A stretch of DNA of 62,618 bases, the filler included, from Obrimoposthia wandeli (taxonomy: Eukaryota): NCBI GenBank assembly GCA_977020255.1. It is 2 parts of one record of this genome, joined end to end, with 100 filler letters (N's around TTAATTAATTAA, not from the genome) between each part and the next. Parts side by side here need not be neighbours in the genome. Positions count along the whole stretch, not along the records: positions 1 to 30,784 come from CDROCS010001659.1; 1 more part is not named here. One strand, given 5' to 3'. Position 1 is the stretch's first letter, and each line of letters opens with the position of its first letter. The notes beneath the pieces are model-generated. The model searched no databases, was not told the origin of the DNA, and worked only from the letters and a program-made list of their open reading frames with translations. A program made the position numbers and the translations under genes. Below, piece by piece: positions 5,327 to 30,884 of the stretch.

Positions 5327-5945
5327 AGTAGGTGGATGTGTCCGGTCTAATCCACACACCACCCCCACACCCCCTCTGTCCTTTAAAACCATGCATGTGT
5401 GTGGAGTGAAACTTCGAGCATGTGTGTGGAGTGAAATTTCGTGCATGTGTATGGAGTGAAATTTTCTACCCCCTCCCCCACCCACCCAACACTCAAAAAA
5501 CTAATTAACCCCATATAACACCCTTTAAAATTGAAAATCTCATAATGCTCCCAAAAAAGTTAGGAAGGTCCTGGGAGGCCGTTCAGTGGGCCAAAGCGTG
5601 CCCTCCGGACCCGCGGTGGTTTAACGAGCAACACATATACAGGGTCGCGAAAAAATATTTCCATTATAAGAATTTATATCCATACATATATAGATAGGGT
5701 CGCGAAAAATATTTTCGCTATAAGAATTTATATCTAGATACATATATATAGGGTCACAAAAATTTTTAAATTATCAACTACATAAATTGGAAATGATATC
5801 AACATTTTCATTTATTCGGATGAGTTATCGTTGAGTCATAGAATGAGTCATCATGACCTTAAATGACCTTGACCTCATGATGACCTTAAATGACCTTGAC
5901 CTCATGAGGTCATGACCTTAACTTGACCTGAAATGACCTCTGAAA
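5327..5945. repeat. Putative left terminal repeat and origin region of the outer Polinton
   Basis: Starts AGTAGGTGGATGTGTCCGGTCTAATCCAC, homologous to the inner element termini. Three 25-bp iterons GCATGTGTGTGGAGTGAAA (5393-5461), C-rich tracts, three ~55-bp AGGGTC(G/A)C repeats (5641-5765), TGACCT repeat cluster (5853-5940). Candidate TSD TGTATT at 5321-5326 cannot be confirmed because the right end is absent. Confidence 0.75.
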
Positions 5946-6308
5946 AAAATTCTACATTTCAAACATGTACGGTCAAGAAAATATTACTATTTTAAATCAA
6001 AAGATATATATGTATTCAAACATCAACAAAAATTAAGAAAATACTATAAATTATTTGAATAATACGTTCTCATTGGACGTTGAACTTAAGCAACAAAAAC
6101 TTAAGAAAATAATACTATTTTCAAATAAAATATTTTTTTTATCCAATGACATACTCGCATTCAATCGTAGTTAAAAAATTGATAAAAGCCTATGGATTTT
6201 TCAAATAAATTATTTGAATAACCCGCTTTCATTGGACGATAAAAGAGGGTTAGTCTGTTGTTTTTGTATATAAGGAAACCTCTTTTCATTATTTTTCATT
6301 AATCAAGA

Positions 6309-8433
6309 ATGGCAAATTTCAACAACGTCGATTTGGATGAAGAGATGGAGATACATCTATATGGGGTTTTCTCTCCAGTACAGCAGCGAACGCCACCACC
6401 GGCACAGTACATTGACTTACTTAGTCAAGACTCATCGGTGATGAGCGAAGGAGACGAAGGAGAAGCAACAGCAAGAGCTGAGCTGTTGCTAGAAGAACCG
6501 CCATTGGCCAGCTCAACTCCGAGAGAAGAACCAATGAGCGTGAGAGGTGGGATACAGAGATCCCAATATATCGACCTGACTAGTCAGGATTCGATTGAGA
6601 ATTGGGAAGACTGTACTCCCAGGCAAAACACAAAACCCAATCATCCGGCAACTTCAGCAGTAGCAGCAGGGAGATCCAATCTCTTCCAGAATTTTGAGGC
6701 GGCAATCAAATGCCCCTGGAAATTGATCCCGCTGTCTCAGGCGGAGATAGTACTCGCACCAGACTCAGACGAGGAGTTATTCACCGATGACGTTCCGTCG
6801 GATGGTGAGGAGGACTTGACTCCATTCATCGACGAATGGATACAGCCAAGTATCGGAGCCCCAGGAGCCAACAATTCAATGGGGGCAGAATTGGACGAGG
6901 ATGAGTGGCGCCTATTCACCGACGATTGGGATGGTGTCACTCCCTCTACAACTCCAACTCCGATAGCCGACAATACGGTGCCTGATTCATTCAAAAGACC
7001 GCAATCTCCGATATGTCCTGTTAGGAGAATAAAGGCGACGAATGAGTTAGTCTATCAATTTATTTAAAATGTTTTTTAATTTCATTTTTAGAAACTTCAA
7101 CTGGATTTGGCACCCTCAGTGACCACGGTGGAGAGGCTGATTGAACCGCAGTACTTGGCGAGTCAATGTAGCCAGGATGATCCCAGGAGTGATCAGCGAT
7201 ACCTACCGACTCCGGCTAAATTTGAGGTATATTATTATAAATTAGTTAATTATTTTAATTATTCACATAGGAAGCTAAATTGGTGGAGGAAATTTGGGAG
7301 GAGGCAACTCTCAGACTAGGAAACAAGCGGCGGTTAAGAAACCTCGACGCCATTGGGTCAAAACCCACAAGGTCCATCGGAAGAAGGCCAGGTTGGCGAA
7401 ACAGGCTAACCTGCCCGTCATCGAGGTAATTTATTTATATTTTTAAATTGTATTTATGTTTTTTGTTGCAAGAACCAATACAATTAACTGAGGAGACAAT
7501 GGGTAAAATTTCTCCTTTCCCGCAGAAGCAAATGAGGCAGGCTGCTGTACGGAAGACGAAGCGTCTTAGAAAGGCGAAATCTTGTCTGCTCAAATCGAGC
7601 GAAGTAACGATAGAGCGACAGGAAAAACTTCCGTATAAGATTATTGAGGTAAAATTTTAGATATTTAAATATTTTTTATATAAATGAATTTTATTAAAAA
7701 AAATTTATTAATGTTTTCTCTGCAGGAACCTGTCCGGATAATTGAGGAGGCTTGTGGAGAAGTTACTTCTTTCCCTAAGAAAAGGACAAAGCGAGCAGAG
7801 GTGAAGAAGACGAGGCGCTCGAGAAAATGTAACACCTCAATTGGCCATTATTCTGAGGTGGTGATTGGACGGCAGGAGATTATCCCATCTCCAGTAGACG
7901 ACGGTCCAATTTTATACGAGAGGATCCCAGTCTCACCGATCGAGATTAGTCCGCCATCAAGTCAACGACGCCTGCAGGAGACATCACTGGCTTCTCCTCG
8001 TCCAACAACAAGCCAGAACTTAAAGAGGGCCTGGGATGAAGCTGGATTGGACGAATTCCTGGCGGAACTGGATACACCGGCAATGCTTCCAGATTCGCGT
8101 GGGAAACAGGATGCCGTCTCACGCCAGCTTCAGCGTGAGAAGGAGGAGAAACAGAAGAAAGCTCCGCGGAAGAGGAATGCTACTGCTTCTATGTCGGGGC
8201 CATCAACATCGGCTGCACCTCCTCCCAAAATGTTGCGGCAACTATTGCCAAAACCTGAGGGAAGGACAATTGCTACAAAGCAACCGGTGAAACCGAAAAA
8301 GAAACCGGGCCGGCCAAAGAAGAAGGAACCAGTACTGCTTTCTCCTATAATACTTAGTCGGAGGGATTACGACCCGGATGATCCCAATGATAACTTCTTA
8401 AAGATGTTTAAAAATATAATTTATAAACATTAG
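6309..8433 (+). pseudogene. Spliced multi-exon acidic/basic disordered protein of the Polinton, with SIM-like motifs; slightly decayed
   Basis: TATATAAG at 6267. ORF segments 6309-7067, 7092-7226, 7271-7425, ~7472-7648 and 7726-8433 are separated by short AT-rich introns (7227-7270, 7649-7725 with GAG|GT and AG|GAA). A frameshift lies in exon 3 and one acceptor appears mutated. Confidence 0.7.
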
Positions 8434-8706
8434 TTTCATATGTTTTATTGTTATTATTTATTTAAATATCATCTTTAAGTTTATTAAAATATCAACATGA
8501 AAAAAATATTTAATTTATTCGCCTGTGATTGGATTAATAAGGAATCATTGAAATTTTTCAGGTTTAAATATAAATGCAATGATTAGTTATAGATTTATTA
8601 AACTTTCATTTGATACATAAAAATATATCATTTCATTGCTTGTGATTGGATTAAAAATCTCTTAAAGTTATATATATAGGTTCAAATTTATTAACCTCTT
8701 CATAAA

Positions 8707-9030
8707 ATGGAATTCATTAAATTGCAAAGCTTGGTAGCGAAGATAGAAGCAAACATCAGAATAAATTAGAAGAAAGGAGACTTAAGAAAGAGGGTCCTCA
8801 ATCAAAATTTGTATGCTGCTGCCGCGACCGAGTGGAATCGCCGGGTGGAGATACAAGATAGGAGGCTAGCAGAACGACGTTAAATCGTGGAGTGGAATAA
8901 GAAGATCGAATTGGAAAAAAGGAAGTTGGATGAAAAAAAAAGAGAAGAGATGGAGGATATTCGGCGAGCAGCAAGAAAAAAGAATCATCCAGATTAAACC
9001 GGAAGAGGGTCCTTCTACAAAAAAGTAATT
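8707..9030 (+). pseudogene. Decayed small coiled-coil ORF of the Polinton
   Basis: MEFIKLQSLVAKIEANIRIN*...EWNRRVEIQDRRLAERR*IVEWNKKIELEKRKLDEKKREEMEDIRRAARKK with internal stops; TATATATAGG upstream. Confidence 0.5.
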
Positions 9031-9834
9031 TTTTGATTATTATTTTGTCTTTATTGATTAGGTTACATAATTGTCTAAATATTTTACATAATTGTCTAAA
9101 TATTTTACATAAGCATACTAAATATAAACAATTTTATATATAATGTTTTTGTAAAATGGATAATAAAATTTGGAATAAATTATACATATAATTATCTCCA
9201 GATTTAATGGAAGATTATAAAAAAATTACTTTTCAGAAAATGATACCGAGGAAATTGTTGGATATAAATTATGAAATTTAATTTCGAAATATTTAGGTAT
9301 GTTTACATTTAATATAATTTATTTTAATATTCATAGGAGAATTGACAATATATACCAATCTTAACATGAAAGACTGAATACTTTGTTATTTTAATAAATT
9401 TTTGATTTTTTCGTTATAAACAACGGGATTTGCTGCAATTTTAGATAATTATGCTGGAATACATCATAGATTTTGAGGCTTTCATTAACAAATATGGTGA
9501 TTATATTATAAAAGAATTATGTATTATGGATGTATGCGACGTTTTTCATCCTTTGCATTTCATATTTCAAATAGATATCCCGTTTAAAAGTTTAGATTAT
9601 AAGAAAAAATTTACTAATTTATATCTAACTAATTACTTTCATTTATTAAAATGGAAAGAAGGACATAAGGCTTTTTGTGAAATATGTATTTTCGATACAA
9701 TAACATCTAATTTTGATATAGAAAATAGTAGGTAGAAGGATGGAGTCTAAGCCACTTGACCCCCCCCTTAAAGGGTGTTACACCATAAGGGTGTCTTGCC
9801 ACACCATAAGGGTATATGTTGCCTCACCGGAGGT

Positions 9835-9878
9835 GGGAGGGGGAGGGGAGGGGGAGGGGAGGGGGAGGGATAGGGGGG
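9835..9878 (+). other. G-quadruplex-forming tract inside a terminal hairpin (mirrored at 20959-21002)
   Basis: GGGAGGGGGAGGGGAGGGGGAGGGGAGGGGGAGGGATAGGGGGG, lying between inverted copies of the terminal motif (9734-9766 and 9873-9904). Confidence 0.8.
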
Positions 9879-10135
9879 TCAAGTGGCTTTGACTCCATCC
9901 TTCTTTGATATACCACTATGGTCGTCCATAATTCAAAGGGTCAAGTGGCTTAGTCTCCACCCTTCTTTTTGTGATATACCACTATGAAAGGGTCAAGTGG
10001 CTTAGTCTCCACCCTTCTTTTTGTGATATACCACTATGAAAGAGTCAAGTGGCTTAGTCTCCACCCTTCTTTTTGGCTAACCACTATGATCGTCCATAAT
10101 TCAAAGAGTCAAGTGGTCTAGTCTCCACCCTTCTT
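9873..10135. repeat. Subterminal iterons TCAAGTGG(CT/TC)TAGTCTCCACCCTTCT (5 on the left; 7 mirrored at ~20590-20965)
   Basis: Direct ~26-bp repeats related to the terminal motif but in the opposite orientation to the terminal copy. Confidence 0.85.
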
Positions 10136-10723
10136 TGGTATACCACTATGATCGTCCATAATGAAAATTTAGGCTAAAGTTCACTCTTATCAGTCAAGGA
10201 ATGTGGTTTTTAACACACATACACTATTTTATGTGAAATTTAAACTAAAGTTCACTCTTATCAGTTAAGGAATGTATTACGTAATCACACACATACTATT
10301 CTATGTGAAAATTTAGACTAAAGTTTTTCCTAGGCTTACACATTTATAGAATTATGATAAAATTTCTTTAAATAACTTCAATTATATATTAAAATAAAAA
10401 AATAAAATAAGAAAGAAGTCAGAGAATAATACAAAATTAAACACATTTATTATGTAATTTCATAATATCATCTTCAAACTTAAGTGAATAACATTTACAA
10501 AGTAAGAAAGTCCATTCTTTATACATTCTTTTCGTTTCAACGACTAAGTTACAACGGAATTAATAGAAAAAGGAAAAAAAAAAACAACACTAAGTTTAAC
10601 GCTATGAATGAAAATTAGTAAAAATATTAATTTATTTGAATATTCGAATGAGAGTTTGAATAAATGAGAGTTAGAATGAATGTAAATGAATAAAATTATG
10701 CATGCAAGTATGAATGTCATTTA

Positions 10724-11900
10724 CAAGTAAGAGTCTTAGCAAGTGAATGTAATTTAAAAATAAGAGTGTCGATAGTTTGATTGAATGCAAGTGTAATTTA
10801 GACTATAAGTAAATTAAAATAGAGTTTTCATTGGATAAACTATAGTTAGATTGAATGCAAGTATGAATGCAAGTGAATGATAGTATGAATTTCAATACAA
10901 GTAAGTGTCTTAGCAAGTGAATGTAATTTAAAAATAAGAGTGTCGATAGTTTGATTGAATGCAAGTGTAATTTAGACTAAGTAAATTAAAATAGAGTTTT
11001 CATTGGATAAACTATAGTTAGATTGAATGCAAGTATGAATGCAAGTGAATGCTAGTATGAATTTCAATACAAGTAAGTGTCTTAGCAAGTGAATGTAATT
11101 TAAAAAATAAGAGTGTCGATAGTTTGATTGAATGCAAGTGTAATTTAGACTATAAGTAAATTAAAATAGAGTTTTCATTGGATAAACTATAGTTAGATTG
11201 AATGCAAGTATGAATGCAAGTGAATGATAGTATGAATTTCAATACAAGTAAGTGTCTTAGCAAGTGAATGTAATTTAAAAAATAAGAGTGTCGATAGTTT
11301 GATTGAATGCAAGTGTAATTTAGACTATAAGTAAATTAAAATAGAGTTTTCATTGAATAAATTATAGTAAGATTGAATGCAAGTATGAATGCAAGTGAAT
11401 GATAGTATGAATTTCAATACAAGTAAGTGTCTTAGCAAGTGAATGTAATTTAAAAAATAAGAGTGTCGATAGTTTGATTGAATGCAAGTGTAATTTAGAC
11501 TATATGTAAATTAAAATAGAGTTTTCATTGAATAAATTATAGTTAGATTGAATGCAAGTATGAATGCAAGTGAATGATAGTATGAATTTCAATACAAGTA
11601 AGTGTCTTAGCAAGTGAATGTAATTTAAAAAATAAGAGTGTCGATAGTTTGATTGAATGCAAGTGTAATTTAGACTATAAGTAAATTAAAATAGAGTTTT
11701 CGTTGAATAAATTATAGTTAGATTGAATGCAAGTATGAATGCAAGTGAATGATAGTATGAATTTCAATACAAGTAAGTGTCTTAGCAAGTGAATGTAATT
11801 TAAAAAAATAAGAGTGTCGAGAGTTTGATTGAATGCAAGTGTAATTTATATAAGTAAATTAAAATAGAGTTTTCGTTGAATAAATTATAGTTAGATTGAA
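10724..11900 (+). repeat. 175-bp satellite array, ~6.7 copies
   Basis: Unit CAAGTAAGTGTCTTAGCAAGTGAATGTAATTTAAAAAATAAGAGTGTCGATAGTTTGATTGAATGC... recurs every ~175 bp. Confidence 0.95.
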
Positions 11901-13327
11901 TGTAAATGAATACAAGTATACATTCAAGTGAATGCAAATACGAGTAAGAGTTTCAGCAAGTAAATATAAAACTATGAATGAGTGACAGTGAAAATAAGAG
12001 TGTCGATAGTTTGATTGAATGAGAGTGTAATTTAGACTAGAAATAAATTAAAATAGAGTTTTAGTATGAATAAAGTTATGTTAAGTTACAGTTAGATTAA
12101 TAACAAGTAAGCAACTATAGAAAGCAGTGATATTGAAGTATGTTAAAAATTAGAACGACTAAGTTATGGCAAGATTAATAGAAAACAACATCAAATTTGA
12201 CAGTATGAATGAAAATTAGTAAAATATTAATGTATTTGAATGTATTTGAAAGATAGTTTGAATAAATTACAGTTAGATTGAATGCAAATGAATGCAAGTA
12301 TGATTGAATGCAGGGTCAAGTACAAGTAAGAAAGAATACGCAATATGCAAGTACGAATGCCAATTATGAATGAAAATTAGTAAATATATTAATGAATTTG
12401 AATAATTAAAATGTCTTATCTCGTTTGATAAAATTCCTTAATTGAAATATTTTAAAATAATTAGTTTAATTTAAATTCTTTATTTTTTTAAAAATAACTT
12501 GATTATACAATTATATTCGTAAATATAATTAAAATTATCATTATTCGTTTCTCTTTTTAACTATTCGAAACTGTTTTTATATATACAAATTTAGTAAATT
12601 AACTCAACAACAATTTTTTTTTTAATTACTTGATATTTTTGCCATTGTCTTATTAATATAATATGAATATTCAATTTATTTCTTCAAAAATTCATTTTAT
12701 ATGTTAAATAATATTTCTTTACCACATTATTGTGGTTTTATCAAGTGATTTTAACCTTAAACTATAAAAATATTTTAATTATAAAGTTAGTAGCTGTACC
12801 CCGCTCACTGCATATAACATAAATTTCAAATATAAAGTACTATTAAGTTTATTATTTCAAATAGTAAATGTTTTTTTTTCGAGTTATTTAATTTTGTTAC
12901 TAGACATTCGAAAATTTACTTGTAAACATAATATTTTTTTTTTGTTTGTTGCATATTTTCAGTTTAATATGTTGTAAGTTATTCGAACTTGTGTACTTGT
13001 ACAAAATTTGTAGATATTTCAATAATTAAAAGTGATATAAAAGTTAATTATCAAATAATAAATAAAAAAAATAGTTAAATTAAATCTAATTTATGATATT
13101 GAATGCTAAATTCTTCTTTAAAACCAATGTTTAACATGAAATACTTTAAATCAATGGTTTTTTTTTAAAAGTAACTTTATTTAAAACGTATAGGTATATG
13201 ATTGATATAATACAATACTAAACTAATGTAAATTTCTTGTTCAACTATGAATATTTTTAACTTATTTCTTGATTTTTACAACATTTCGAATAGTTTACTT
13301 AATAATCATAATATTAATGATTTGTAC

Positions 13328-14727
13328 GATAAATTGACTTGTAAACATAATTTATTTTACATATATTCATTTAATATATTGTAAGTTAATACTGTAATAT
13401 TTCATTACATAAAAAATTAATTCATAGTTTACTGTCGTTTACAATAAATTGACTTGTAAACAAAATATATTTTCGCATATATTCACTTTAATATGTTGTA
13501 AGTTATTCCTTTAATATAATTTTCAACAAAAACTTCAAGTCGTTTACTTATTAAACATAAGTTTAATGTTTTGTACAATAAATTGACTTGTAAACGTAAT
13601 TTATTTTGGCATATTTTCAATTTAATATATTTTAAGTTATTACTGTAATATTACATTACATAAAAAGTAATTGATAGTTTACTATCGTTTACAATAAATT
13701 GACTTGTAAACATAATATATTTATGCATATATTCACTTTAATATGTTGTAAGTTATTACTTTAATATAATTTACAACAAAAACTTCAAGTAATTTACTTG
13801 TAAACTACAATATTTATTTGTTGTTGTATATATATTCAGTTTAAAATGTTGTAAGTTATTACTTTAATATAATTTACAACCAAATCTTCAAGTAGTTTAC
13901 TTATTAAACATAAGTTTAATGTTTTGTACAATAAATTGACTTGTAAACATAATTTATTTTGGTATATTTTCAATTTAATATGTTGTAAGTTATTACTTTA
14001 ATATAATTTACAACAAAAACTTCAAGTAATTTACTTGTAAACTACAATATTTATTTGTTGTTGTATATATTCAGTTTAAAATGTTGTAAGTTATTACTTT
14101 AATATAATTTTCAACAAAAACTTCAAGTAATTTACTTGTAAACTACAATATTTATTTGTTGTTGTATATATTCAGTTTAAAATGTTGTAAGTTATTACTT
14201 TAATATAATTTACAACCAAAACTTCAAGTAATTTACTTATTAATCATAATTTTAATGATTTGATCAATAAATTGACTTGTAAATATAATATAATTTGCAT
14301 ATTTTCAATTTAATATATTGTAAGTTAATACTGTAATATTTCATTACATAAAAAGTAATTCATAGTTTACTGTCGTTTACTATAAATTTACTTGTAAACA
14401 TAATATATTTATGCATATATTCACTTTAATACGTTTTAAGTTATTAGAATTTGTGTTCTTGTATTCAATGATTAACTTTTATTAAACTATTATATAACAT
14501 TGAAATGTTTAAAATACTTGAGCAAAATAAATTAATATAATAAAAGGATATTAAAATGTATTTTAGTTTAAGATAAAAAATGAGGTTATACGAAGTTAAT
14601 CTAGTTTAAAAACAATTAATACCAAAATTACTTACCAGAATGTGTAAACAACAGTAAACTATTATAACCTACAATAAAGAAACTATTGAATTATAATATA
14701 ACCAATCGTATTCAGTAAGTGATAAAT
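13328..14727. repeat. Central spacer of the palindrome, largely degenerate ~90-130-bp AT-rich repeats
   Basis: Recurrent AATAAATTGACTTGTAAACATAAT...TTAATATGTTGTAAGTTATTAC; no ORF. Confidence 0.75.
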
Positions 14728-17700
14728 GTACAAATCATTAATATTATGATTATTAAGTAAACTATTCGAAATGTTGTAAAAATCAAGAAATAAGTTAAAA
14801 ATATTCATAGTTGAACAACTCATAACTGAAATTTACATTAGTTTAGTATTATATCAATCATATACCTATACGTTTTAAATAAAGTTACTTTTAAAAAAAA
14901 ACCATTGATTTTTAAGTATTTCATGTTAAACATTGGTTTTAAAGAAGAATTTAGCATTGCAATATCATAAATTAGATTTAATTTAACTATTTTTTATTTA
15001 TTATTTGATAATTAACTTTTATATCGCTTTTAATTATTGAAATATCTACAAATTTTGTACAAGTACACAAGTTCGAATAACTTACAACATATTAAACTGA
15101 AAATATGCAACAAACAAAAAAAAATATTATGTTTACAAGTAAATTTTCGAATGTCTAGTAACAAAATTAAATAACTCGAAAAAAAAACATTTACTATTTG
15201 AAATAATAAACTTAATAGTACTTTATATTTGAAATTTATGTTATATGCAGTGGGCGGGGTACAGCTACTAACTTTATAATTAAAATATTTTTATAGTTTA
15301 AGGTTAAAATCACTTGATAAAAACCACAATAATGTGATAAAGAATATTATTTAACATATAAAATGAATTTTTGAAGAAATAAATTGAATATTCATATTAT
15401 ATTAATAAGACAATGGCAAAAATATCAAGTAATTAAAAGAAAAAATTGTTGTTGAGTTAATTTACTAAATTTGTATATATAAAAACAGTTTCGAATAGTT
15501 AAAAAGAGAAACGAATAATGATAATTTTAATTATATTTACGAATATAATTGTATAATCAAGTTATTTTAAAAAAAATAAAGAATTTAAATTAAACTAATT
15601 ATTTTAAAATATTTCAATTAAGGAATTTTATCAAACGAGATAAGACATTTTAATTATTCAAATTCATTAATATATTTACTAATTTTCATTCATAATTGGC
15701 ATTCGTACTTGCATATTGCGTATTCTTTCTTACTTGTACTTTACCCTGCATTCAATCATACTTGCATTCATTTGCATTCAATCTAACTGTAATTTATTCA
15801 AACTATCTTTCAAATACATTCAAATACATTAATATTTTACTAATTTTCATTCATACTGTCAAATTTGATGTTGTTTTCTATTAATCTTGCCATAACTTAG
15901 TCGTTCTAATTTTTAACATACTTCAATATCACTGCTTTCTATAGTTGCTTACTTGTTATTAATCTAACTGTAACTTAACATAACTTTATTCATACTAAAA
16001 CTCTATTTTAATTTATTTCTAGTCTAAATTACACTCTCATTCAATCAAACTATCGACACTCTTATTTTCACTGTCACTCATTCATAGTTTTATATTTACT
16101 TGCTGAAACTCTTACTCGTATTTGCATTCACTTGAATGTATACTTGTATTCATTTACATTCAATCTAACTATAATTTATTCAACGAAAACTCTATTTTAA
16201 TTTATTTATAGTCTAAATTACACTTGCATTCAATCAAACTATCGACACTCTTATTTTTTAAATTACATTCACTTGCTAAGACACTTACTTGTATTGAAAT
16301 TCATACTATCATTCACTTGCATTCATACTTGTATTAAATCTAACTATAATTTCGATTCATTCACTTGAAAACTCTATTTTAATTTACTTATTCAGCATTC
16401 TCAAATTATTCACGAAAACTTATTTTAATTTACTTATAGCTAAATTCACTTGCATTCAAACTATCGACACTCTTATTTTTTAAATTACATTCACTTGATA
16501 AGACACTTACTTGTATTGAAATTCATACTATCATTCACTTGCATTCATACTTGCATTCAATCTAACTATAATTTATTCAACGAAAACTCTATTTTAATTT
16601 ACTTATAGTCTAAATTACACTTGCATTCAATCAAACTATCGACACTCTTATTTTTTTAAATTACATTCACTTGCTAAGACACTTACTTGTATTGAAATTC
16701 ATACTATCATTCACTTGCATTCATACTTGCATTCAATCTAACTATAATTTATTCAACGAAAACTCTATTTTAATTTACTTATAGTCTAAATTACACTTGC
16801 ATTCAATCAAACTATCGACACTCTTATTTTTTTAAATTACATTCACTTGCTAAGACACTTACTTGTATTGAAATTCATACTATCATTCACTTGCATTCAT
16901 ACTTGCATTCAATCTAACTATAATTTATTCAATGAAAACTCTATTTTAATTTACTTATAGTCTAAATTACACTTGCATTCAATCAAACTATCGACACTCT
17001 TATTTTTTTAAATTACATTCACTTGCTAAGACACTTACTTGTATTGAAATTCATACTATCATTCACTTGCATTCATACTTGCATTCAATCTAACTATAAT
17101 TTATTCAACGAAAACTCTATTTTAATTTACTTATAGTCTAAATTACACTTGCATTCAATCAAACTATCGACACTCTTATTTTTTAAATTACATTCACTTG
17201 CTAAGACACTTACTTGTATTGAAATTCATACTATCATTCACTTGCATTCATACTTGCATTCAATCTAACTATAATTTATTCAACGAAAACTCTATTTTAA
17301 TTTACATATAGTCTAAATTACACTTGCATTCAATCAAACTATCGTCACTCTTATTTTTTAAATTACATTCACTTGCTAAGACACTTACTTGTATTGAAAT
17401 TCATACTATCATTCACTTGCATTCATACTTGCATTCAATCTAACTATAATTTATTCAATGAAAACTCTATTTTAATTTACTTATAGTCTAAATTACACTT
17501 GCATTCAATCAAACTATCGACACTCTTATTTTCACTGTCACTCATTCATAGTTTTATATTTACTTGCTGAAACTCTTACTCGTATTTGCATTCACTTGAA
17601 TGTATACTTGTATTCATTTACATTCAATCTAACTATAATTTATTCAACGAAAACTCTATTTTAATTTATTTATAGTCTAAATTACACTTGCATTCAATCA

Positions 17701-20700
17701 AACTCTCGACACTCTTATTTTTTAAATTACATTCACTTGCTAAGACACTTACTTGTATTGAAATTCATACTAGCATTCACTTGCATTCATACTTGCATTC
17801 AATCTAACTATAATTTATTCAACGAAAACTCTATTTTAATTTACTTATAGTCTAAATTACACTTGCATTCAATCAAACTATCGACACTCTTATTTTTTAA
17901 ATTACATTCACTTGCTAAGACACTTACTTGTATTGAAATTCATACTATCATTCACTTGCATTCATACTTGCATTCAATCTAACTATAATTTATTCAACGA
18001 AAACTCTATTTTAATTTACTTATAGTCTAAATTACACTTGCATTCAATCAAACTATCGACACTCTTATTTTTTAAATTACATTCACTTGCTAAGACACTT
18101 ACTTGTATTGAAATTCATACTATCATTCACTTGCATTCATACTTGCATTCAATCTAACTATAATTTATTCAACGAAAACTCTATTTTAATTTACTTATAG
18201 TCTAAATTACACTTGCATTCAATCAAACTATCGACACTCTTATTTTTTAAATTACATTCACTTGCTAAGACACTTACTTGTATTGAAATTCATACTATCA
18301 TTCACTTGCATTCATACTTGCATTCAATCTAACTATAATTTATTCAACGAAAACTCTATTTTAATTTACTTATAGTCTAAATTACACTTGCATTCAATCA
18401 AACTATCGACACTCTTATTTTTTAAATTACATTCACTTGCTAAGACACTTACTTGTATTGAAATTCATACTATCATTCACTTGCATTCATACTTGCATTC
18501 AATCTAACTATAATTTATTCAACGAAAACTCTATTTTAATTTACTTATAGTCTAAATTACACTTGCATTCAATCAAACTATCGACACTCTTATTTTTTAA
18601 ATTACATTCACTTGCTAAGACACTTACTTGTATTGAAATTCATACTATCATTCACTTGCATTCATACTTGCATTCAATCTAACTATAATTTATTCAACGA
18701 AAACTCTATTTTAATTTACTTATAGTCTAAATTACACTTGCATTCAATCAAACTATCGACACTCTTATTTTTAAATTACATTCACTTGCTAAGACACTTA
18801 CTTGTATTGAAATTCATACTATCATTCACTTGCATTCATACTTGCATTCAATCTAACTATAATTTATTCAACGAAAACTCTATTTTAATTTACTTATAGT
18901 CTAAATTACACTTGCATTCAATCAAACTATCGACACTCTTATTTTTTTAAATTACATTCACTTGCTAAGACACTTACTTGTATTGAAATTCATACTATCA
19001 TTCACTTGCATTCATACTTGCATTCAATCTAACTATAATTTATTCAACGAAAACTCTATTTTAATTTACTTATAGTCTAAATTACACTTGCATTCAATCA
19101 AACTATCGACACTCTTATTTTTTAAATTACATTCACTTGCTAAGACACTTACTTGTATTGAAATTCATACTATCATTCACTTGCATTCATACTTGCATTC
19201 AATCTAACTATAATTTATTCAATGAAAACTCTATTTTAATTTACTTATAGTCTAAATTACACTTGCATTCAATCAAACTATCGACACTCTTATTTTTAAA
19301 TTACATTCACTTGCTAAGACACTTACTTGTATTGAAATTCATACTATCATTCACTTGCATTCATACTTGCATTCAATCTAACTATAATTTATTCAACGAA
19401 AACTCTATTTTAATTTACTTATAGTCTAAATTACACTTGCATTCAATCAAACTATCGACACTCTTATTTTTTAAATTACATTCACTTGCTAAGACACTTA
19501 CTTGTATTGAAATTCATACTATCATTCACTTGCATTCATACTTGCATTCAATCTAACTATAATTTATTCAATGAAAACTCTATTTTAATTTACTTATAGT
19601 CTAAATTACACTTGCATTCAATCAAACTATCGACACTCTTATTTTTTAAATTACATTCACTTGCTAAGACACTTACTTGTATTGAAATTCATACTATCAT
19701 TCACTTGCATTCATACTTGCATTCAATCTAACTATAATTTATTCAACGAAAACTCTATTTTAATTTACATATAGTCTAAATTACACTTGCATTCAATCAA
19801 ACTATCGACACTCTTATTTTTAAATTACATTCACTTGCTAAGACACTTACTTGTATTGAAATTCATACTATCATTCACTTGCATTCATACTTGCATTCAA
19901 TCTAACTATAATTTATTCAATGAAAACTCTATTTTAATTTACTTATAGTCTAAATTACACTTGCATTCAATCAAACTATCGACACTCTTATTTTTAAATT
20001 ACATTCACTTGCTAAGACTCTTACTTGTAAATGACATTCATACTTGCATGCATAATTTTATTCATTTACATTCATTCTAACTCTCATTTATTCAAACTCT
20101 CATTCGAATATTCAAATAAATTAATATTTTTACTAATTTTCATTCATAGCGTTAAACTTAGTGTTGTTTTTTTTTCCTTTTTCTATTAATTCCGTTGTAA
20201 CTTAGTCGTTGAAACGAAAAGAATGTATAAAGAATGGACTTTCTTACTTTGTAAATGTTATTCACTTAAGTTTGAAGATGATATTATGAAATTACATAAT
20301 AAATGTGTTTAATTTTGTATTATTCTCTGACTTCTTTCTTATTTTATATTTTTATTTTAATATATAATTGAAGTTATTTAAAGAAATTTTATCATAATTC
20401 TATAAATGTGTAAGCCTAGGAAAAACTTTAGTCTAAATTTTCACATAGAATAGTATGTGTGTGATTACGTAATACATTCCTTAACTGATAAGAGTGAACT
20501 TTAGTTTAAATTTCACATAAAATAGTGTATGTGTGTTAAAAACCACATTCCTTGACTGATAAGAGTGAACTTTAGCCTAAATTTTCATTATGGACGATCA
20601 TAGTGGTATACCAAAGAAGGGTGGAGACTAGACCACTTGACTCTTTGAATTATGGACGATCATAGTGGTTAGCCAAAAAGAAGGGTGGAGACTAGACCAC

Positions 20701-21108
20701 AAAAAGAAGGGTGGAGACTAAGCCACTTGACTCTTTCATAGTGGTATATCACAAAAAGAAGGGTGGAGACTAAGCCACTTGACCCTTTCATAGTGGTATA
20801 TCACAAAAAGAAGGGTGGAGACTAAGCCACTTGACCCTTTGAATTATGGACGACCATAGTGGTATATCAAAGAAGGGTGGAGACTAAGCCACTTGACCCT
20901 TTGAATTATGGACGACCATAGTGGTATATCAAAGAAGGATGGAGTCTAAGCCACTTGACCCCCCTATCCCTCCCCCTCCCCTCCCCCTCCCCTCCCCCTC
21001 CCACCTCCGGTGAGGCAACATATACCCTTATGGTGTGGCAAGACACCCTTATGGTGTGACACCCTTTAGGGGGGTTCAAGTGGCTTAGACTCCATCCTTC
21101 TACCTACT
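14728..21108 (-). repeat. Right inverted arm of the inner element (~6.4 kb, enlarged by satellite expansion)
   Basis: Mirror of the left arm with scattered substitutions, more iterons and about three times as many 175-bp units. Confidence 0.9.
16170..20035 (-). repeat. 175-bp satellite array in inverted orientation, ~21 copies, interrupted at ~17525-17625
   Basis: AACGAAAACT at 17821 and 18171 are 350 bp apart (2 x 175). The interruption duplicates the array boundary sequence at ~16045-16170. Confidence 0.95.
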
Positions 21109-21556
21109 GAAAATGGATTTTTTATGTTTTAGATGAAATGGATGGCAAAAAATATAAGACTTTAAAAAAATATTTTCCCAAATTGAGGTTGAATACTTTA
21201 AATATTTCACGTGATCATCTATTAAAAATTCCACGAAATATTTGCTGTCCATATCGTAATCATGGTGACCATTGCGCATATAAAAAATGTTTAAGTCTTT
21301 CTTATTATTACTTGACATGTAGATAAACAATTCTTCTAATTGGAGAAATTCATTATTAAAATTTTACATCTAATTACAAATAAGCCTTTTGATTGGAGGA
21401 ATAAAAATATTTTTTTAAACTAATAACAGATAAACAATCCTTCTCAGTGGAGGGATAAATTCAATTTTTTAATCCAATAGGAAAAGAGCATGTGTGCATA
21501 AATTTTAGTATATAAGCAAACACTTTCTTCATTTAAATCCCCGACAATTTGAAATA

Positions 21557-22799
21557 ATGACTATGGTAAGAATCTATACTTATTATTTCCTTATTAATAT
21601 TTATTAATATTTATTATTTCAGATTACTTGTATCCTGTTTCCAGCATATTGTGGTGCTTCGGATCCGCATGGAGGAGAGACTTGCATGGAGATAATGTCC
21701 GCCTACTATCGGACAAAGTCTCGCGGGCTTCACTTCTTCGTCTGCCTCTTCTGCAGAACAATGGAGGAGAAGGAGTTTCGAGACTTCTTCGGTGAACATC
21801 GAGCTCATCTATCGTGTTTCACGGCCAACAACAAGAAGAGGGATATCGTGCAATTGGTGCACGATTCGCAGGCCGCTCCAGCTACTGCTCCAATTCCAGT
21901 TGCAGTTGATCAACCCTTTTACGGTCCTGCCATTGATCCTTCTGTCCCGGCTCCTGATTCTGCTGCTGCCCCATCCACTCAAATGACTAACAATGAGTGG
22001 ATGAATGACATCTCCGAAGAAGATTTTGAGGAGTTGGCCCCAGCAACCCAATTCTTGAACAATGACTGGATGGAAAATATCACCCAGTCAGATTTCGAGA
22101 TAGAGCAGCCTCAGTGGAGCGATAACTCTTGGTTGGAGACCATCGAGGAATCCGATTTCGTCGAGATAACGGACGACAGCTGGATGGATTTCATAAATGA
22201 AGAGGACTTCATTCCAGCTCCAGTTGGATTGCCTTCATTAGGTATTTTTTATTATTATTTTTTAAAATTGTAATTATATATATTATTGTAATTATATATA
22301 TTTGAATTTTATTTTTTATTCAGGAAATACCGTGATACAATGGTCATCCGCTACGACAGCTATGCCTCTCCCATCGCGAGTGCCTACATCGATGTTAGCA
22401 CGTCTTAGAGGTAATAATTTAAAAATATATTTATTTTTTAATATATTTATTTCAGCAGCATCAGCCTCTACAACGGCCGCTTCTTCATCGGCAAGGTCAG
22501 CTTCTACCATGCTTACTCCAACTTCAAATGCAGCCTCTACAACTGCCACTGTTTCATCATCTGCGGCAGCATCTATTACAGCAGCATCGTCTACACCAGC
22601 TGCGATTGCCTCAACATCGGCAGCTTTACCAATAGCAGCACCTTCAATCTCAGCTGCGTTTGTGTCAACTGTTAATATAAATAGTTGTCTTCCCGTTCAA
22701 TTAGTGGGAGGTTTGTCAGCAACTGTAGGAAGAAAGAGGCGAGGCCAATTTCTTAATAAGGTCCCACCAAAAAACGTAGAGAAAACGGTGTTACTATAG
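21557..22799 (+). CDS. Spliced Polinton protein: Cys/His cluster, four W-x3-I-x3-DF acidic repeats and an Ala/Ser linker; possibly the N-terminal extension of pPolB
   Basis: TATATAAG at 21509. Exons 21557-21565, 21623-22241, 22324-22410 and 22456-22799 join in frame through GT-AG introns of phase 0, 1 and 1. Confidence 0.75.
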
Positions 22800-22834: not shown

Positions 22835-25800
22835 GTGCCATTAGGAAATGAAATTTTATTAAACGTAGGTGAAGATTCAAATATTGAAAATCTTTTAAAA
22901 TCAGAAGTGACTAAATTAGGACAGGCTAAGGTTCAATTTTGTGCAACAGTGCAGTTTAAAAATGTCAATGAGGAGACTAAAACTTGGGTAATTTCACATA
23001 AAGCAACTGTTTTCGATGATAATTTTGTAACTGAAATTGGAAGAAACCTAGATGAAAAATTGCTAATTATAGCGAGTTAAGTAGTGGATGGAATCTAGTT
23101 AGAATTCACGATGTTAGCTTTGTTCTAACAAAGTTCACTGACATGATATATCTTTCGGGGAGTTCATACATTCCTTCACCTAGATCTCTTCAACTTTCAC
23201 GTTCCATTGTTAACATACAAAACAGTGATAACCTTTGCTTTCTGTATAGCGTGTTGGCCATCCTCTAAAGGGGTGTAATTACTGAACATAGAGAGCGTGT
23301 CAGTAAATATACCCTTTTTTAAATGAATTGCAGTATCATGGAATAGATTTTCCTGTTAAATTAACTGCGATATCAAGATTTGAACATCTTAATAACTTGA
23401 GTATTAATGTATTCAAATATAATACTGATATCCCAGTTAATGTAACAGATGAAGAAATATTTAAAAATCCTTTTGTAGATGTAATTTATAGGAGCAAAAA
23501 TGAGGGGACTCAGGTCAACTTAATTTTGTTCGAACAGAATAATAAATTCCATTATGCTGCAATTCCCAGTTTAGATCGTCTTCTAAATTTAGATAATGGA
23601 GCCTTACCATAAGGTGTAAGTGGTGTCATAGATGTTTGCATGGATTCCGATCAGAGCTCTCTTACAGCAAACATCTGACATTATGTTCACTGAATCCTGA
23701 TGACAATACGCTATACAGCATGCCTAAGGATAAGGATTTAAATTCAGGGATTGGGCAAAATGCATACCCGTGGAATTCAGGGTGTTTGCAGATTTTGAGT
23801 CAATTTTAGCATTGCACGACCAGTATGAGAGTATTCACCTACCGGCTTCGGCAGGACTACTATTCTTAGGCCCCAATATTACACAGTATCATAAATTTTC
23901 CGGTCCAAATTGTATTTTAGATTTTATGTTAAAATTAGAAGAATTAGGAACAACAATTGTCAAACCGTGGTATGATCTCAATGCTCATCAAGCAATGATC
24001 ATGACAGGCAAAGACTGGGTTAATTTTAATTCTTGTAGATTATGTTATTTGTGTGGAACCCAGTCTAAGTTAGTCAGAGATCACGATCATGTTACGGGGC
24101 GATACTTGGGAGCGGCGTGCAACCTCTGTAACCTTGGCCGTCGTCTCCCTAAAAAACCACGCATTTCCATCGTGTTTCATAACCTCAAAGGATATGATTT
24201 GCATCATATACTTAAATATGCGTTGGGTACATTAAGCTCTTGGGAAATTTCTTGTATACCTCAAACTTCAGAGAAATATTTATCTTTAACTGCATATACT
24301 GAATTCTGTAGTTTAAGATTCATAGATTCTCTGCAGTTTTTGAGCGAGTCTTTAAAAAATTTAACGGCATCTTTAAATGCATGGCCAATCACACAGTCAG
24401 TGTTCTCAGCTTCGGTTAATGATAAGGGGATTTTTCCGTATAAATTTGCAAAAACCTTTGCAGATTTAGAAAATACTACAGAAATCCCACCCATAACTGA
24501 ATTTGAAAGTCAAGACTATAATGAGGCCCGTACTATTTGGACGAATAATTGTCGAAATCTTCTTGAATATATGCTTTATTATATGAAATTAGACATTTAT
24601 CTTTTAGCTGATGTTTTTGAGTCCTTTCGTGTAAAGTCTTTAGCAGAATATGGGCTAGATCCCATGCATTTCTTTAGTTTACCTGGTCTTTCATGGGCAA
24701 CAGCAATAAAAACTCTTAAAATTAATATCGAGTTACTGCAAGATCCCGTGATGTATCAAATGTATGATTATGGTATACGCAGTGGAATGACTTTTGTCAA
24801 CAAACATCATGTTGTCAAAAATCAATCCACGGAGATTCTGTACATCGACATTAATAATTTGTATGGGTGGGCGCTTACTCAACCTCTACCTCATGCCAAC
24901 TTTAAGTGGGTTTATGATGAGGAAGAGTTGAATAAGTTGAAGATAGATTTGGCTACTGTCGATACAGTTTCATCAGATATCGGCTATTTGGTTGAGGTTG
25001 ACTTAACAATCCCTCCCAATGTGCATGATAAATTAGATGATCTTCCAGTAGCGCCTGTTCATCAATGCCCACCTAATTCAAAGGTTAAGAAATTATTGTT
25101 AACCCATGAAGACAAGTTGAATTATGTTGTGCATTGGCGGCTTCTTCAATTCTACTTAAAGTTGGGAGCGAAAGTTACTCGAATTCATCGTGCTATAAGC
25201 TTCAGTCAAAACTTTGTGTTTAAAGACTATATTGAGAAGAATTCTAGAAAACATAATTTGGCCACTAGAAAATTCGAACGGGATTTTTACAAGTTAAAAA
25301 GTAATAGCCTCTTTGGAAAAACTATAAGCTTCAGTCAAAACTTTGTGTTTAAAGACTATATTGAGAAGAATTCTAGAAAACATGACTAGAAAATTCGTTT
25401 TTACAAGCCTCTTTGGAAAAACTGTAGAGGACTTGCGGAAACGTGTTTGTCTACGGTTTTGCAATGATGAGCGTAAACTAATAACATATACTAGTAAGTA
25501 CAACTTCAAGCGTAGTTTTACAATTGCAGATGACTTGGTAGCAGTGTTATTAGGAAAACAGAGTATTTGTCTCGATCGACCGAGTTATATAGGTCAAACG
25601 GTTTTAGACATTTCTAAACTCAGAATGTATGAGCTTCAATACATAGAATTGGAGAAATACCGACAAGAATTTAATTGTGAGATTAAAATCGCAGCTGGGG
25701 ACACTGACTCTTTCTTTTTAGAATGTAGGAATGTTAGTTTAAATAATCAATTATTACCAGCAATGTTTACGGACAACTTACTAGATATCCATAAATATCC

Positions 25801-26167
25801 CGCTAACCATCCTCTACACTCTATGAGTTTAAAGGATATTATCGGGAAATTTAAGGATAAAAGCGAGGGACAGGTTTCGTATGATCATTGTATTTTCCTA
25901 TGCCCTAAATGCTACAGTTTACATGCATCTAATAATACATGTTCAATGAGAGCAAAGGGTGTGGGAAGAAACAATCTTACACATGAGGCCTACCGGAAAG
26001 TTTATGATACTGGGTGTATTGAAAGCGTTGAGCAAACTAGATTTATTTCAAAAGCCCATCAACTGTATTCCCATAAATCAACAAAAATCGCTTTGAGTAG
26101 TAATGACGACAAGCGCTTTTGGGTAGAAAAGAACGCTAGCCTGGCTTATGGACACTTCCGAATTTAA
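22835..26167 (+). pseudogene. polB: Protein-primed family B DNA polymerase (pPolB) with vOTU-like, Zn-finger and endonuclease VII domains; frameshifted
   Basis: GSSYIP...IVNIQNSDNLCFLYSVLA and HYAAI (vOTU-like); CHRC...HLTLC; FADFES (Exo I); RDHDHVTGRYLGAACNLCNL (EndoVII); YIDINNLYG (motif A); YKLKSNSLFGKT (motif B); GDTDSFF (motif C). Stops, frameshifts and an internal duplication are present. Confidence 0.95.
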
Positions 26168-26433: not shown

Positions 26434-26814
26434 CTAATCGTTTTGCAACGATAACCATAAAATACATAAATGTCCACAGTTTCTCGTCGCAGGATCCTGA
26501 TATTGTATCTTGTTGTAAAATACTCTTCTTCGTCCTTTTTGAATAGTTGAAACATGTTTGTGTGGATAATATATTGCAAGTGGATCAAATACATGGATTG
26601 TCCACTCTCTAACATAAATAGCTATCCAATGTTCTCCTGGTAAATTCGAAGTATGAGTATTGATAATGTATCCTCCAGATTGAAAAAATGGAATCATATT
26701 AATAGGATAAAGTCCATTGAATTTATCACCCAAGACCTTCTCTGCTGATTCTTGTACTTGTACTGAACTAAATAAAAATTAATAAATATAAATTTAAAAT
26801 ATGTCTTACTCCAT
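26434..26814 (-). CDS. Adenain-like (C5) cysteine protease with a 42-nt intron
   Basis: NTHTSNLPGEHWIAIY, FDPL, QYQDPATRNCGHLC. Exon 1 ATGGA (26814-26810), intron GTAAG...TTTAG (26809-26768); exon 2 is in frame with the ORF. Confidence 0.88.
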
Positions 26815-26815
26815 T

Positions 26816-28014
26816 CTATAATATGACAGTTCTGTTTTTATTGATTTGTATTTCCGAATCAAATACTCCGTAAATAAGCACCGTAGTAGGATTTGTTAAA
26901 GCTGCATTGAACTTAATTTCTAGTCGTAAATTTCCATCCTTTGGTAGTTGGCATTGGTTTATATCAAAGTCTGGTTCCAAAACAAATGTGAAGAACGGGC
27001 AGCTGTTTTTAAAGTCAGTGAAAGAAATACCATTGTTTATATTTTTATCTAGTTGACCCAAATTCCGAATAATAGATTGCGTATAAGCCAAAGCATAAGC
27101 GTTACCTTCGAAATCTGTTTTATATGTTTCGCGATAATCAGTATTTCTTGAAAGTGTCACTGAACCTACATTAAGATTGTCAAATTGAGTTGCATCTGTC
27201 GTATAATTTCCTAGATACTTTGCAGTTTTTTGAAAAGAAATTAAAATTAATTTCGGTAATCTTACATCACCAAAAATGTGATCCTTATTAAAAGCTTGTG
27301 TAAAGAATAGGATATAAGTTTAGTTTCTCTAATAGGATAACAAGCATTGTTTTTTTCCATTTCTATATTATGTGCCATTAAAACTGATTGCTCGGTTTTA
27401 ACTCTTCGGACATACAATTTTGCATCCAAAATATCAAATCTAGGTTTTAGAACGTCTGTGCTTATCAAAGAAAAATTCCATTTATTACGTTTCAAACGAA
27501 GATGTACATTAACACCGGAAATTAAATATTTCGGTTGTTCAAAGAAATTCAATCTCAAAGACCCACACATTTCGTAAGCTTTAGAACCTGCAATCCATTC
27601 TTTGCGAGTTGCGACCGTTTTATCATAACCAATGGTTGCCAAATTAGAATTTTGAGTATCAGTACTATAATTCAAAAGACTTTCAATCAAAGCTTTATGA
27701 GCATAGGAAGAATTTCCACCTTCAATTTTGACAATATTAAGAATAACAATAGCATCACTAAATAAAGAATTAAAGAGATAATTTACAGGTGTTACATCTG
27801 CATTTTCATCTAAATTAGTACCATCCCGATTTAATACTTTCATTTGAACATAAAGCAACGTATCATTCAAATCTAAATACTCGATATTGGAACCATTAAT
27901 ATTAAATTCTAAATCGGTTAAAGTGGTTCCTGAAACTGAGTTAACTAGAAATATTTCTTCAAAGAAAGCATTATCTACAACTACTTGTGGAAATGGATTT
28001 TCAAAAATACACAA
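26816..28014 (-). pseudogene. Polinton double jelly-roll major capsid protein, one frameshift near 27300
   Basis: CIFENPFPQVVVDNAFFEEIF...LEFNINGSNIEYLDLNDTLLYVQMKV...LYVRRVK; C-terminus GNLRLEIKFNAALTNPTTVLIYGVFDSEIQINKNR. The shifted frame TQAFNKDHIFGDVRLPKL links the two ORFs. Confidence 0.9.
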
Positions 28015-28031
28015 TTTGGTTTTGGCGCAAC

Positions 28032-28409
28032 TTATTTTGTAAATATTGTTTCTTCAACTTTCTTACGTGTGTTTATATTATTTTTTACTTCTTTTTTACG
28101 TTTAAATTCACTACCTTTTTGGCTTTTATTTGATTTACCATTTTTAATCAAATTAGCAACGTCAGGTAAAGCATTATCAAGTTCATCAAGTGCATGCTTC
28201 TTAAAAGTTGGTATTAGTTTATTGTCCTTAGATGAAAGGTAATCCTTTCCTAATTTTGATATAAATAGCCCGAGTCTCTTTAAAAGAGGAAAGGCAAATC
28301 TACCTAATGTTCTAAGCCAGCCAGATCCATATTGTTTACCAACAAAATATGGTAATTCTCCACCTTGTTGGCTTTGACTATAAGCTTCAATTATTGCTGG
28401 ATTCGTCAT
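28032..28409 (-). CDS. Small basic core/pX-like Polinton protein
   Basis: YFVGKQYGSGWLRTLGRFAFPLLKRLG (QxGxG plus amphipathic helix) with a Lys-rich tail; lies between the minor and major capsid genes. Confidence 0.75.
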   Translation of the reverse strand: MTNPAIIEAYSQSQQGGELPYFVGKQYGSGWLRTLGRFAFPLLKRLGLFISKLGKDYLSSKDNKLIPTFKKHALDELDNALPDVANLIKNGKSNKSQKGSEFKRKKEVKNNINTRKKVEETIFTK

Positions 28410-30784: not shown

Positions 30785-30884
30785 NNNNNNNNNNNNNNNN
30801 NNNNNNNNNNNNNNNNNNNNNNNNNNNNTTAATTAATTAANNNNNNNNNNNNNNNNNNNNNNNNNNNNNNNNNNNNNNNNNNNN
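30785..30884. other. Artificial assembly spacer: 44 N + TTAATTAATTAA + 44 N
   Basis: Symmetric 100-nt block whose 12-mer gives stop codons in all six frames, typical of contig-joining linkers. Confidence 0.9.

Follow-up and report, generated by a model that had tools for sequence, protein, structure and literature searches.

We analysed a window of 62,618 nucleotides from the genome of Obrimoposthia wandeli (GCA_977020255.1), in which one mobile element lies inside another. The outer one (5327-30784) is a decayed element of the Polinton/adintovirus type, whose right end is lost at an N gap made of two N runs (30785-30884). Its protein-primed DNA polymerase gene (pPolB; 23056-26167, + strand) is broken into at least five pieces and contains PF03175 (E 4e-29) together with an endonuclease VII domain (PF02945), and its relatives include a named adintovirus PolB. 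On the - strand lie a weakly matched adenain-like protease gene (26437-26778), whose PF00770 match (E 0.054) falls below the cut-off and which tblastn links to an ORF from a related locus (E 6e-10), and a gene split over two frames (26816-28032), both pieces of which match the homolog P0138 at 58%. Searched by sequence against PDB, the capsid piece gave no match, and its identity was settled by a fold search of P0138, whose model (pLDDT 90) matches double-jelly-roll (DJR) capsids of iridovirus, PBCV-1 and virophage (E 4e-17). Judged from this predicted fold, the split gene encodes a DJR major capsid protein. Besides, a BIR/IAP-domain accessory ORF (29923-30784, +; PF00653, E 2.4e-12) runs into the N gap, and the ORF at 9451-9726 (+) is the 5' piece of another accessory gene, split by the inner element. 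The latter ORF had no Pfam match, and its candidate label as Maelstrom-like comes from a rank-9 atlas match to a Maelstrom cluster (score 0.88), which serves as a lead only.

The outer element shares with known Polinton/Maverick (adintovirus) elements a pPolB with endonuclease VII domain, a DJR capsid, a protease and two convergent gene modules, and differs from them in that no integrase or packaging ATPase is seen before the gap. For the integrase, two profiles, derived largely from the rve integrases of related loci (rve was present in 5 of 7 ORFs tested), gave no match among 1,307 six-frame pieces (best E values 1.8 and 3.2), in an element that is cut by the N gap. The ATPase profile, made of five Walker-A ORFs chosen without a Pfam check, gave a best E of 0.82, and this gene may lie past the gap. 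The sequence-only reading had cast the outer element as a helper of the inner one. This role is unsupported, because in the visible copy the genes for pPolB and the capsid are broken, no integrase or ATPase was detected up to the N gap, and nothing but the terminus is shared with the inner element.

The inner element (9727-21108; 11,382 bp) is a gene-less foldback element. It is flanked by a perfect 6-bp target-site duplication (TSD), GAAAAT, at 9721-9726 and 21109-21114 (both +), and has AGTAGGT at both ends (9727-9733, +; 21102-21108, -). Its terminal inverted arms (9727-13327 and 14728-21108), more than 3.6 kb long, enclose an unpaired central loop of AT-rich tandem repeats (13328-14727) and contain a 175-bp satellite, with 8.1 copies in the left arm (10656-12083) and 21 inverted copies in the right arm (16406-20095). 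Inverted subterminal copies of the terminal unit, five in the left arm (9873-10134, -) and seven in the right arm (20615-20964, +), lie inside the ends, and all 12 lack the cap. The nearest left copy forms a predicted hairpin with the terminus (z -7.3), and the hairpin of the right arm has z -7.7. A G-quadruplex-type tract is found in the left arm (9835-9878, +), with a mirror copy at 20959-21002. No frame is longer than 86 codons, and neither tblastn of 852 ORFs from related loci against the inner element nor an Rfam scan of 5000-31000 gave a match. The element had been called non-autonomous, and the longest frame of 86 codons and the perfect TSD bear this out. Alignment of the two arms shows mismatches at only 4 of 806 and 14 of 1252 columns, so the insertion is young. 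Together, these features support a recently moved Polinton-type non-autonomous element. We also considered a deletion derivative of the outer element, and this was rejected: beyond the terminal stretch, BLAST found no match between the two elements at E 1e-3.

Foldback elements and MITEs have long modular inverted arms of tandem repeats, no genes and iterated subterminal sites. The inner element resembles them in all of these, and differs in having a Polinton-type cap and a 6-bp TSD, not Mutator-like or other cut-and-paste ends. With non-autonomous Polintons it shares the lack of genes and the Polinton ends, and its own features are the size of 11.4 kb, nearly all of it satellite-filled inverted arms, and an origin other than deletion of its host element. 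In names such as that of the zebrafish family Polinton-1N1_DR, "-N1" stands for non-autonomous. This family name occurs in PMC9341505, and a further source describes PolB-less mobile Polinton derivatives (bioRxiv 2025.02.07.637071). The Polinton hallmarks in the excerpt of PMC8097293 are AGTAG-type ends and a 6-bp TSD, both of which the inner element has, while the ends here read AGTAGG, not (AGT)2.

For the outer element, AGTAGGT at 5327-5333 (+) is the putative left end. GC content steps from 0.25 to 0.47 here, followed by 2.9 copies of a subterminal 25-bp repeat (5392-5464, -), two of which carry terminal positions 25-33 exactly and inverted, and by a G-quadruplex-type tract (5469-5487, -), one of only three such motifs in the window. 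Polinton gene homology was not found upstream of 5327. The boundary had been proposed together with a TSD of TGTATT; the GC step, repeats and G-tract within 5327-5490 favour the first part, though only indirectly, and the second found no backing, since self-BLAST, a 29-mer scan and a search for a CTACT+TGTATT junction all failed to match an outer right end in the window. The boundary is unproven because the right end is lost at the N gap, and 5327 most likely opens a decayed Polinton.

Aligned without gaps, the outer terminus (5327-5355) and the inner terminus (9727-9755) are identical at 21 of 29 positions, which agrees exactly with the sequence-only reading in both coordinates and count. By segment, the identity is 7/7 at positions 1-7, 4/11 at 8-18 and 10/11 at 19-29; the last stretch lies at 5345-5355 (+) in the outer end, at 9745-9755 (+) in the inner left end, and, unchanged, at 21080-21090 (-) in the inner right end. 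The match is tied to its register (14/22 at shift 0 versus 2-9 at 12 other shifts). Past the family-wide AGTAG start, 16 of 24 positions are identical (binomial P 2.6e-5, with the endpoint set post hoc), and when dinucleotides were shuffled 100,000 times and the zero diagonal was scored with scan correction, a match this good arose 44, 229 and 158 times, depending on which of three scan lengths was used (P 4e-4 to 2e-3). The rest of the terminal regions had been held to lack similarity. It turned out that positions 34-40 match at 6 of 7 (a low-complexity C run), making 27/40 over positions 1-40, and that both ends have the same architecture of inverted subterminal copies with CCAC and a G-quadruplex-type tract. 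By sequence comparison, the two ends are clearly related and match beyond chance.

There is a very slim chance that the match is a coincidence and that 5327 does not mark the end of an element. The window contains no right terminal inverted repeat (TIR) or TSD for the outer element, AGTAGGT occurs 9 times versus 4.2 expected, beyond the inner element 14/22 is reached at 13 out of 102,330 positions, 5334 being one of them, and shuffles that allow any diagonal within +-10 are only marginal (897 of 20,000; P 0.045). Against coincidence stand the zero-diagonal P values and the joint occurrence of the boundary features at 5327-5490, with no Polinton genes upstream, while the right end is missing because of the N gap. 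The remaining six AGTAGGT sites match the inner end at just 2-7 of 22 positions.

The likeness does not extend to every detail. The longest common word of the outer and inner repeat units is a 7-mer (P 0.15), and we rejected it as real homology. The TGG-to-CCA dyad spacing is unequal, 16 in the outer end and 8 in the inner end, and the polarity of the G-tracts is opposite in the two elements.

The segment pattern had been interpreted as two blocks, the inner of which (19-29) would be a discrete, fixed-distance core-origin box for pPolB or the terminal protein, with the outer family as helper. The split itself is correct, and the 10/11 match in exact register, with a post hoc Fisher test against 8-18 (P 0.024), would fit such a box. 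However, once the number of matches is taken into account, five windows give P 0.04-0.18 for their concentration in 19-29, which is not significant, and patchy divergence would account for it. The window holds 12 matches of at least 10/11 to the box; 11 of these lie in the inner element and the other is at 5345. Among the 14 inner copies, positions 8-13, 15-19, 21, 23, 26-29 and 33 are invariant, and variable positions number 4 of 11 inside the box versus 1 of 11 in 8-18. Position 20 is T only in the two terminal and the two nearest inverted inner copies, as in the outer end, and A in 10 of 14, which would fit a terminus-specific constraint. Conservation among subterminal copies says little about selection, because the copies are recent duplications.

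As for the two modules proposed, the first one stands: positions 1-7 behave as a separate module, because all 12 inner subterminal copies begin at position 8, and this separable cap also suits a discrete box. The internal module at 19-29 is unsupported, because the unit repeated in the inner element is 8-33 and is more variable inside the box. CCAC (26-29) is common to the two termini, to every inner copy and, because the outer inverted repeats carry terminal 25-33, to two of the three outer repeats as well. We also searched for independent ends in 64 Polinton-like loci from contigs mis-binned in GTDB genomes, with pPolB 27-40% identical to that of the outer element. None of the 631 AGTAG sites in these distant loci reached 8/11 to the box, which would speak against it, although no verified terminus is among them: the 64 loci gave no TIR pair flanking pPolB and no AG-ended, TSD-flanked Polinton end, and copy-boundary comparison also gave none.

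The likeness to the adenovirus origin does not help the box either. In adenovirus the first 18 bp contain the core origin (PMC12513018), and it is here that these ends match least, with 8-18 as the worst segment. Common to both systems are a repeated terminal motif for jump-back priming and an ungapped, fixed distance from the end (PMC12513018, PMC2685984), while the Polinton ends here iterate their unit in inverted orientation. Since the visible outer copy also has no detected integrase and no intact polymerase, we regard a discrete box with a helper as unlikely, and a separate replication signal or core-origin box at 19-29 is not established by these comparisons.

A neutral residue, in which the ends share ancestry, the cap alone matters and 19-29 is a patch that has not yet diverged, has a similarly low likelihood. 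The matches spread over 1-40 and their clustering fits random divergence, and in the excerpt of PMC8097293 conservation fades only gradually inward from the 6-bp motif. On the other hand, each of the two elements has repeated a portion of this stretch, no indel has arisen in it, and the first 40 bp seem selectively retained, because no other similarity between the inner and outer elements is left.

In adenovirus, host-factor sites come after the core origin (PMC2685984). The position of the stretch fits such sites, and it might be kept for a host factor (an auxiliary, NFI-like origin) or a terminal hairpin instead of an element-encoded protein, which we consider highly unlikely. An NFI site, TTGGC(n5)GCCAA, requires strictly 7 bases between TGG and CCA (PMC12630593), and was rejected at these ends by their spacings of 16 and 8. 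A hairpin is suggested by the outer dyad (5332-5355; 9 of 12 pairs, shuffle P about 0.01), one arm of which is the distal half of the outer 19-29 stretch, and by the inner terminal hairpins. But the outer 150-nt end shows no unusual folding (z -1.8 and -0.9), and the outer dyad reaches only 6/12 at best in the inner end, so a secondary structure common to both ends was rejected.

Our preferred reading, held tentatively and with a little less than even confidence, is that both are Polinton-type ends, homologous to each other, that belong to related families of one (flatworm-like) genome and each consist of a cap and an iterated, putative protein-binding unit. The role of the AGTAG motif is established, and the cap (1-7) would provide the AGTAG repeat for jump-back initiation by the protein-primed polymerase as well as the end joined by the integrase, yielding the 6-bp TSD. 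The cap is followed by a unit of some 25 bp (8-33), which each element re-uses as inverted subterminal copies. This unit most likely binds an end-binding protein that the element itself encodes, probably its DDE integrase by analogy with the subterminal repeats of DDE transposons. The stretch 19-29, CCAC above all, would be the best-kept part of the unit between both families. Once strands have been displaced, the long inner arms may restore a double-stranded end (a panhandle step), and the inner parasite was presumably mobilised recently in trans by enzymes of an autonomous relative; where it landed, it interrupted an accessory gene that belongs to the decayed outer copy. The sample here is one outer end, itself a putative boundary, and one inner element. 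Yeast linear plasmids (VLEs) offer a parallel, as protein-primed linear replicons in autonomous/non-autonomous pairs, in which the non-autonomous partners borrow the terminal recognition factor in trans with differing TIRs (PMC8472843); they differ from the Polintons here in being cytoplasmic and non-integrating, and no TRF1-like gene is among the genes recognised here.

For Polinton replication and integration, the cis-requirements in the excerpt of PMC8097293 so far consist of a 6-bp end motif only, with no second motif or iterons. Searches of open-access literature, with the founding papers and Repbase outside their scope, brought up no account of a second Polinton end motif or of a giant foldback non-autonomous Polinton. 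A recently moved gene-less element delimits what a Polinton end must contain, and the concrete candidate parts are the cap 1-7, the iterated unit 8-33 and CCAC at 26-29. The box is a lead, not a discovery, because related Polintons are expected to share ends. A bolder idea, which we think distinctly unlikely, is that the origins are bipartite, with a cap and a fixed-distance box conserved between families of this lineage, and that the inner element is a "gutless" satellite that retained nothing but these signals, whose multiplied unit out-competes the helper and whose satellite stuffer brings it toward capsid-packaging length. If the bipartite-origin reading is true, an internal cis-signal for Polinton replication would have been mapped for the first time, and the inner element would be a natural defective-interfering Polinton. 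As a minor observation, closer relatives of the outer pPolB, 50-56% identical, sit in viral and metagenome contig collections.

The inner element, nested in the decayed outer Polinton, spans 9727-21108 (11,382 bp), carries AGTAGGT at both ends and is flanked on each side by the 6-bp duplication GAAAAT. Its foldback arms (9727-13327 and 14728-21108) enclose a repetitive central loop of 1.4 kb and contain a satellite with a 175-bp unit, present in 8.1 copies in one arm and 21 in the other. The longest frame is 86 codons, an Rfam search of the element gave no match, and BLAST detected no sequence shared with the rest of the window. Not counting indels, the arms show only 4 mismatches over 806 aligned columns and 14 over 1252, so the inner element is a young insertion. 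It interrupts a small accessory gene of the outer element, for which the sole lead is a Maelstrom-like match (score 0.88, rank 9); mael-linked Polintons have been described in insects (bioRxiv 2025.02.07.637071). In length, the inner element lies close to the bottom of the size range of Polinton genomes.

The sequence-only reading had aligned the outer end (5327-5355) with the inner end (9727-9755) at 21 of 29 positions without gaps, and both the coordinates and the count are correct. Counted inward from each end, positions 1-7 (the AGTAGGT cap) agree at 7/7, positions 8-18 at 4/11 and positions 19-29 (the box) at 10/11. Bases 1-5 carry little information, because they form the established end motif of Polintons (PMC8097293); with these left out, 16 of 24 positions agree (binomial P 2.6e-5, with the endpoint chosen afterwards). 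Scan-corrected shuffle tests on the zero diagonal reached the observed match in 44, 229 and 158 per 100,000 shuffles, and a test allowing any diagonal within 10 bases in 897 per 20,000. Shifting the register lowers the match from 14/22 to 2-9, and at the six other AGTAGGT sites of the window just 2-7 of 22 positions agree with the inner end. Therefore, the similarity is real provided that 5327 is an end, and a chance match is hardly credible. The claim that identity is limited to two blocks is weaker than the similarity itself: positions 1-7 and 19-29 do match strongly, but positions 34-40 also match at 6/7, in a C run (27/40 over positions 1-40). In five trial windows, random placement of the matches gives a run of at least 10/11 with P of 0.08, 0.18, 0.14, 0.04 and 0.08, and a post hoc Fisher test of positions 8-18 against 19-29 gives 0.024.

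The box had been likened in position to the adenovirus core origin, which is bound by the polymerase-terminal protein complex (passage in PMC2685984). That origin lies within the first 18 bp (passage in PMC12513018), whereas positions 8-18 are the least shared zone of these ends, so the comparison by position breaks down. For an NFI site, TGG and CCA must be 7 bases apart (passage in PMC12630593); the spacings here are 16 and 8, and this reading was rejected. The “origin-like box” and the outer family as “helper” stand as unproven candidate readings of one pair of ends.

Several features give indirect support to 5327 as the outer end. GC climbs there from 0.25 to 0.47, a 25-bp repeat at 5392-5464 holds inverted copies of terminal positions 25-33, and no Polinton homology was found upstream. 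The window contains only three G-quadruplex-type motifs, one at each of the three ends (outer and two inner), with opposite strands relative to the end between outer and inner ends. No right TIR or TGTATT junction for the outer element was found in the window, which has an N gap at 30785-30884. The outer terminus (5332-5355) forms an imperfect palindrome centred at 17/18 (9/12 pairs, shuffle P about 0.01), and this dyad is absent from the inner end. The presumed left TIR also holds tandem repeats at 5641-5767 (54 bp) and 5848-5907 (27 bp).

Downstream of 5327, the outer element encodes a protein-primed PolB (PF03175, PF02945) broken into at least five pieces, whose best relatives are unnamed metagenomic PolBs (50-56%), the named ones including an adintovirus PolB. 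At one break, about 25250-25400, a short PolB coding stretch lies in tandem duplicate. The capsid gene is split across two frames, each piece being 58% identical to the capsid homologue P0138; the structural model of P0138 matches double-jelly-roll capsids, and on this predicted structure the gene is classed as double-jelly-roll type. There is also a weak adenain-like protease, and a BIR/IAP-domain ORF, a Polinton cargo (29923-30784), runs into the gap that ends the visible element. Inside the gap, a 12-bp TTAATTAATTAA (30829-30840) has an N run on either side and resembles an assembly spacer rather than genomic sequence. A search of 1,307 six-frame pieces with integrase profiles, most of whose source ORFs are Polinton integrases (Pfam rve is present in 5 of the 7 that were checked), and with a Walker-A-ORF profile found nothing, the best E being 0.8-3.2; the integrase and ATPase genes may sit past the gap. 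Five short AT-rich GT-AG stretches in the GC-richer accessory ORFs (approximately 7227-7270, 7426-7472, 7633-7725, 22242-22323 and 22411-22455) look like spliceosomal introns; intact vertebrate Mavericks are reported to be intron-free (passage in PMC8097293).

The most informative feature, absent from the sequence-only reading, is the iteration of the terminal sequence. Inverted subterminal copies of the inner terminus occur five times at 9873-10134 and seven times at 20615-20964, and all 12 start at terminal position 8 and lack the cap. This supports a design of cap plus internal unit, with the unit covering about positions 8-33. The cap behaves as separate from an internal module, as had been proposed, but a module limited to 19-29 is not supported. 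Across the 14 inner copies, positions 8-13, 15-19, 21, 23, 26-29 and 33 are invariant, while within 8-29 positions 14, 20, 22, 24 and 25 vary, that is 1/11 in 8-18 versus 4/11 in the box. Because the copies arose by recent duplication and those of one arm mirror those of the other, their conservation is weak evidence of selection. Neutral leftover homology is an improbable but real alternative. A discrete box bound by pPolB is similarly unlikely; in its favour, only 4 of the 14 copies, namely the two at the termini and the two nearest to them, retain the T that the outer end has at position 20. Polinton repeated end motifs are expected to act in jump-back initiation (passage in PMC8097293), and in a model carried over from Polintons the origins are TIR panhandles (passage in PMC4046053). 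The nearest inverted copy and the terminus form a strong hairpin at each inner end (z -7.3 and -7.7). That the shared stretch is kept for a terminal hairpin or for a host factor is very unlikely. The T/A change at position 20 (9744-9748 and the repeats) turns GTCT into AGAC, the two orientations of a 4-bp Smad element mentioned in PMC12630593, which is too short to weigh.

The two Polinton-type ends are truly related and the gene-less inner element is unusual; the cap, the TSD, the iterated unit and the lack of genes are observed directly. We tentatively favour the iterated unit as a putative site at which a protein encoded by the element binds the end; by analogy with the subterminal repeats of DDE transposons, this protein would most likely be the integrase. 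On this reading CCAC at 26-29 would be the core shared by both ends, and an autonomous relative would have mobilised the inner element in trans. That relative would probably be other than the broken outer copy, possibly a family with closer ends. Yeast linear plasmids likewise use a terminal recognition factor in trans though their TIRs differ (passage in PMC8472843). Among non-autonomous Polintons, Polinton-1N1_DR is one by name (PMC9341505) and Tlr1 is discussed with them (PMC5499653), while they are reported as apparently absent from anole (PMC3014272). We found no description of a second Polinton end motif or a giant foldback Polinton in the open-access library searched. This gene-less foldback of 11.4 kb, which combines Polinton ends with satellite arrays of unequal size, may outweigh the box in interest.

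A scan of GTDB genomes gave 64 Polinton-like loci on mis-binned contigs (PolB identity 27-40%). At their 631 AGTAG sites, none of them a verified terminus, positions 19-29 never matched at 8/11 or more and twice at 7, so there is no sign of a superfamily-wide box in these loci. Such eukaryotic contigs occur in many GTDB bins, about ten loci coming from one bin. In locus L025, a 129-bp stretch (5614-5742) with a perfect 19-bp inverted repeat at its two edges, beginning AGTAGT, may be a Polinton end together with its inverted copy; an intact PolB ORF lies 150 bp downstream, there is no TSD, and the box match is 2-4/11. Loci L039 (5945-9820) and L051 (1890-5852) share one 3.9-kb repeat-rich element without Polinton-like ends, at one site within a Polinton PolB region. 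Elsewhere in the window, exons of a host Hillarin/KY-like gene (56451-57649) match flatworms best; the host is presumably a planarian, and planarian Polintons are PIWI-silenced (passage in PMC8532177). An ORF of 342 codons with no Pfam match runs across a 129-bp tandem repeat at 44563-45591.
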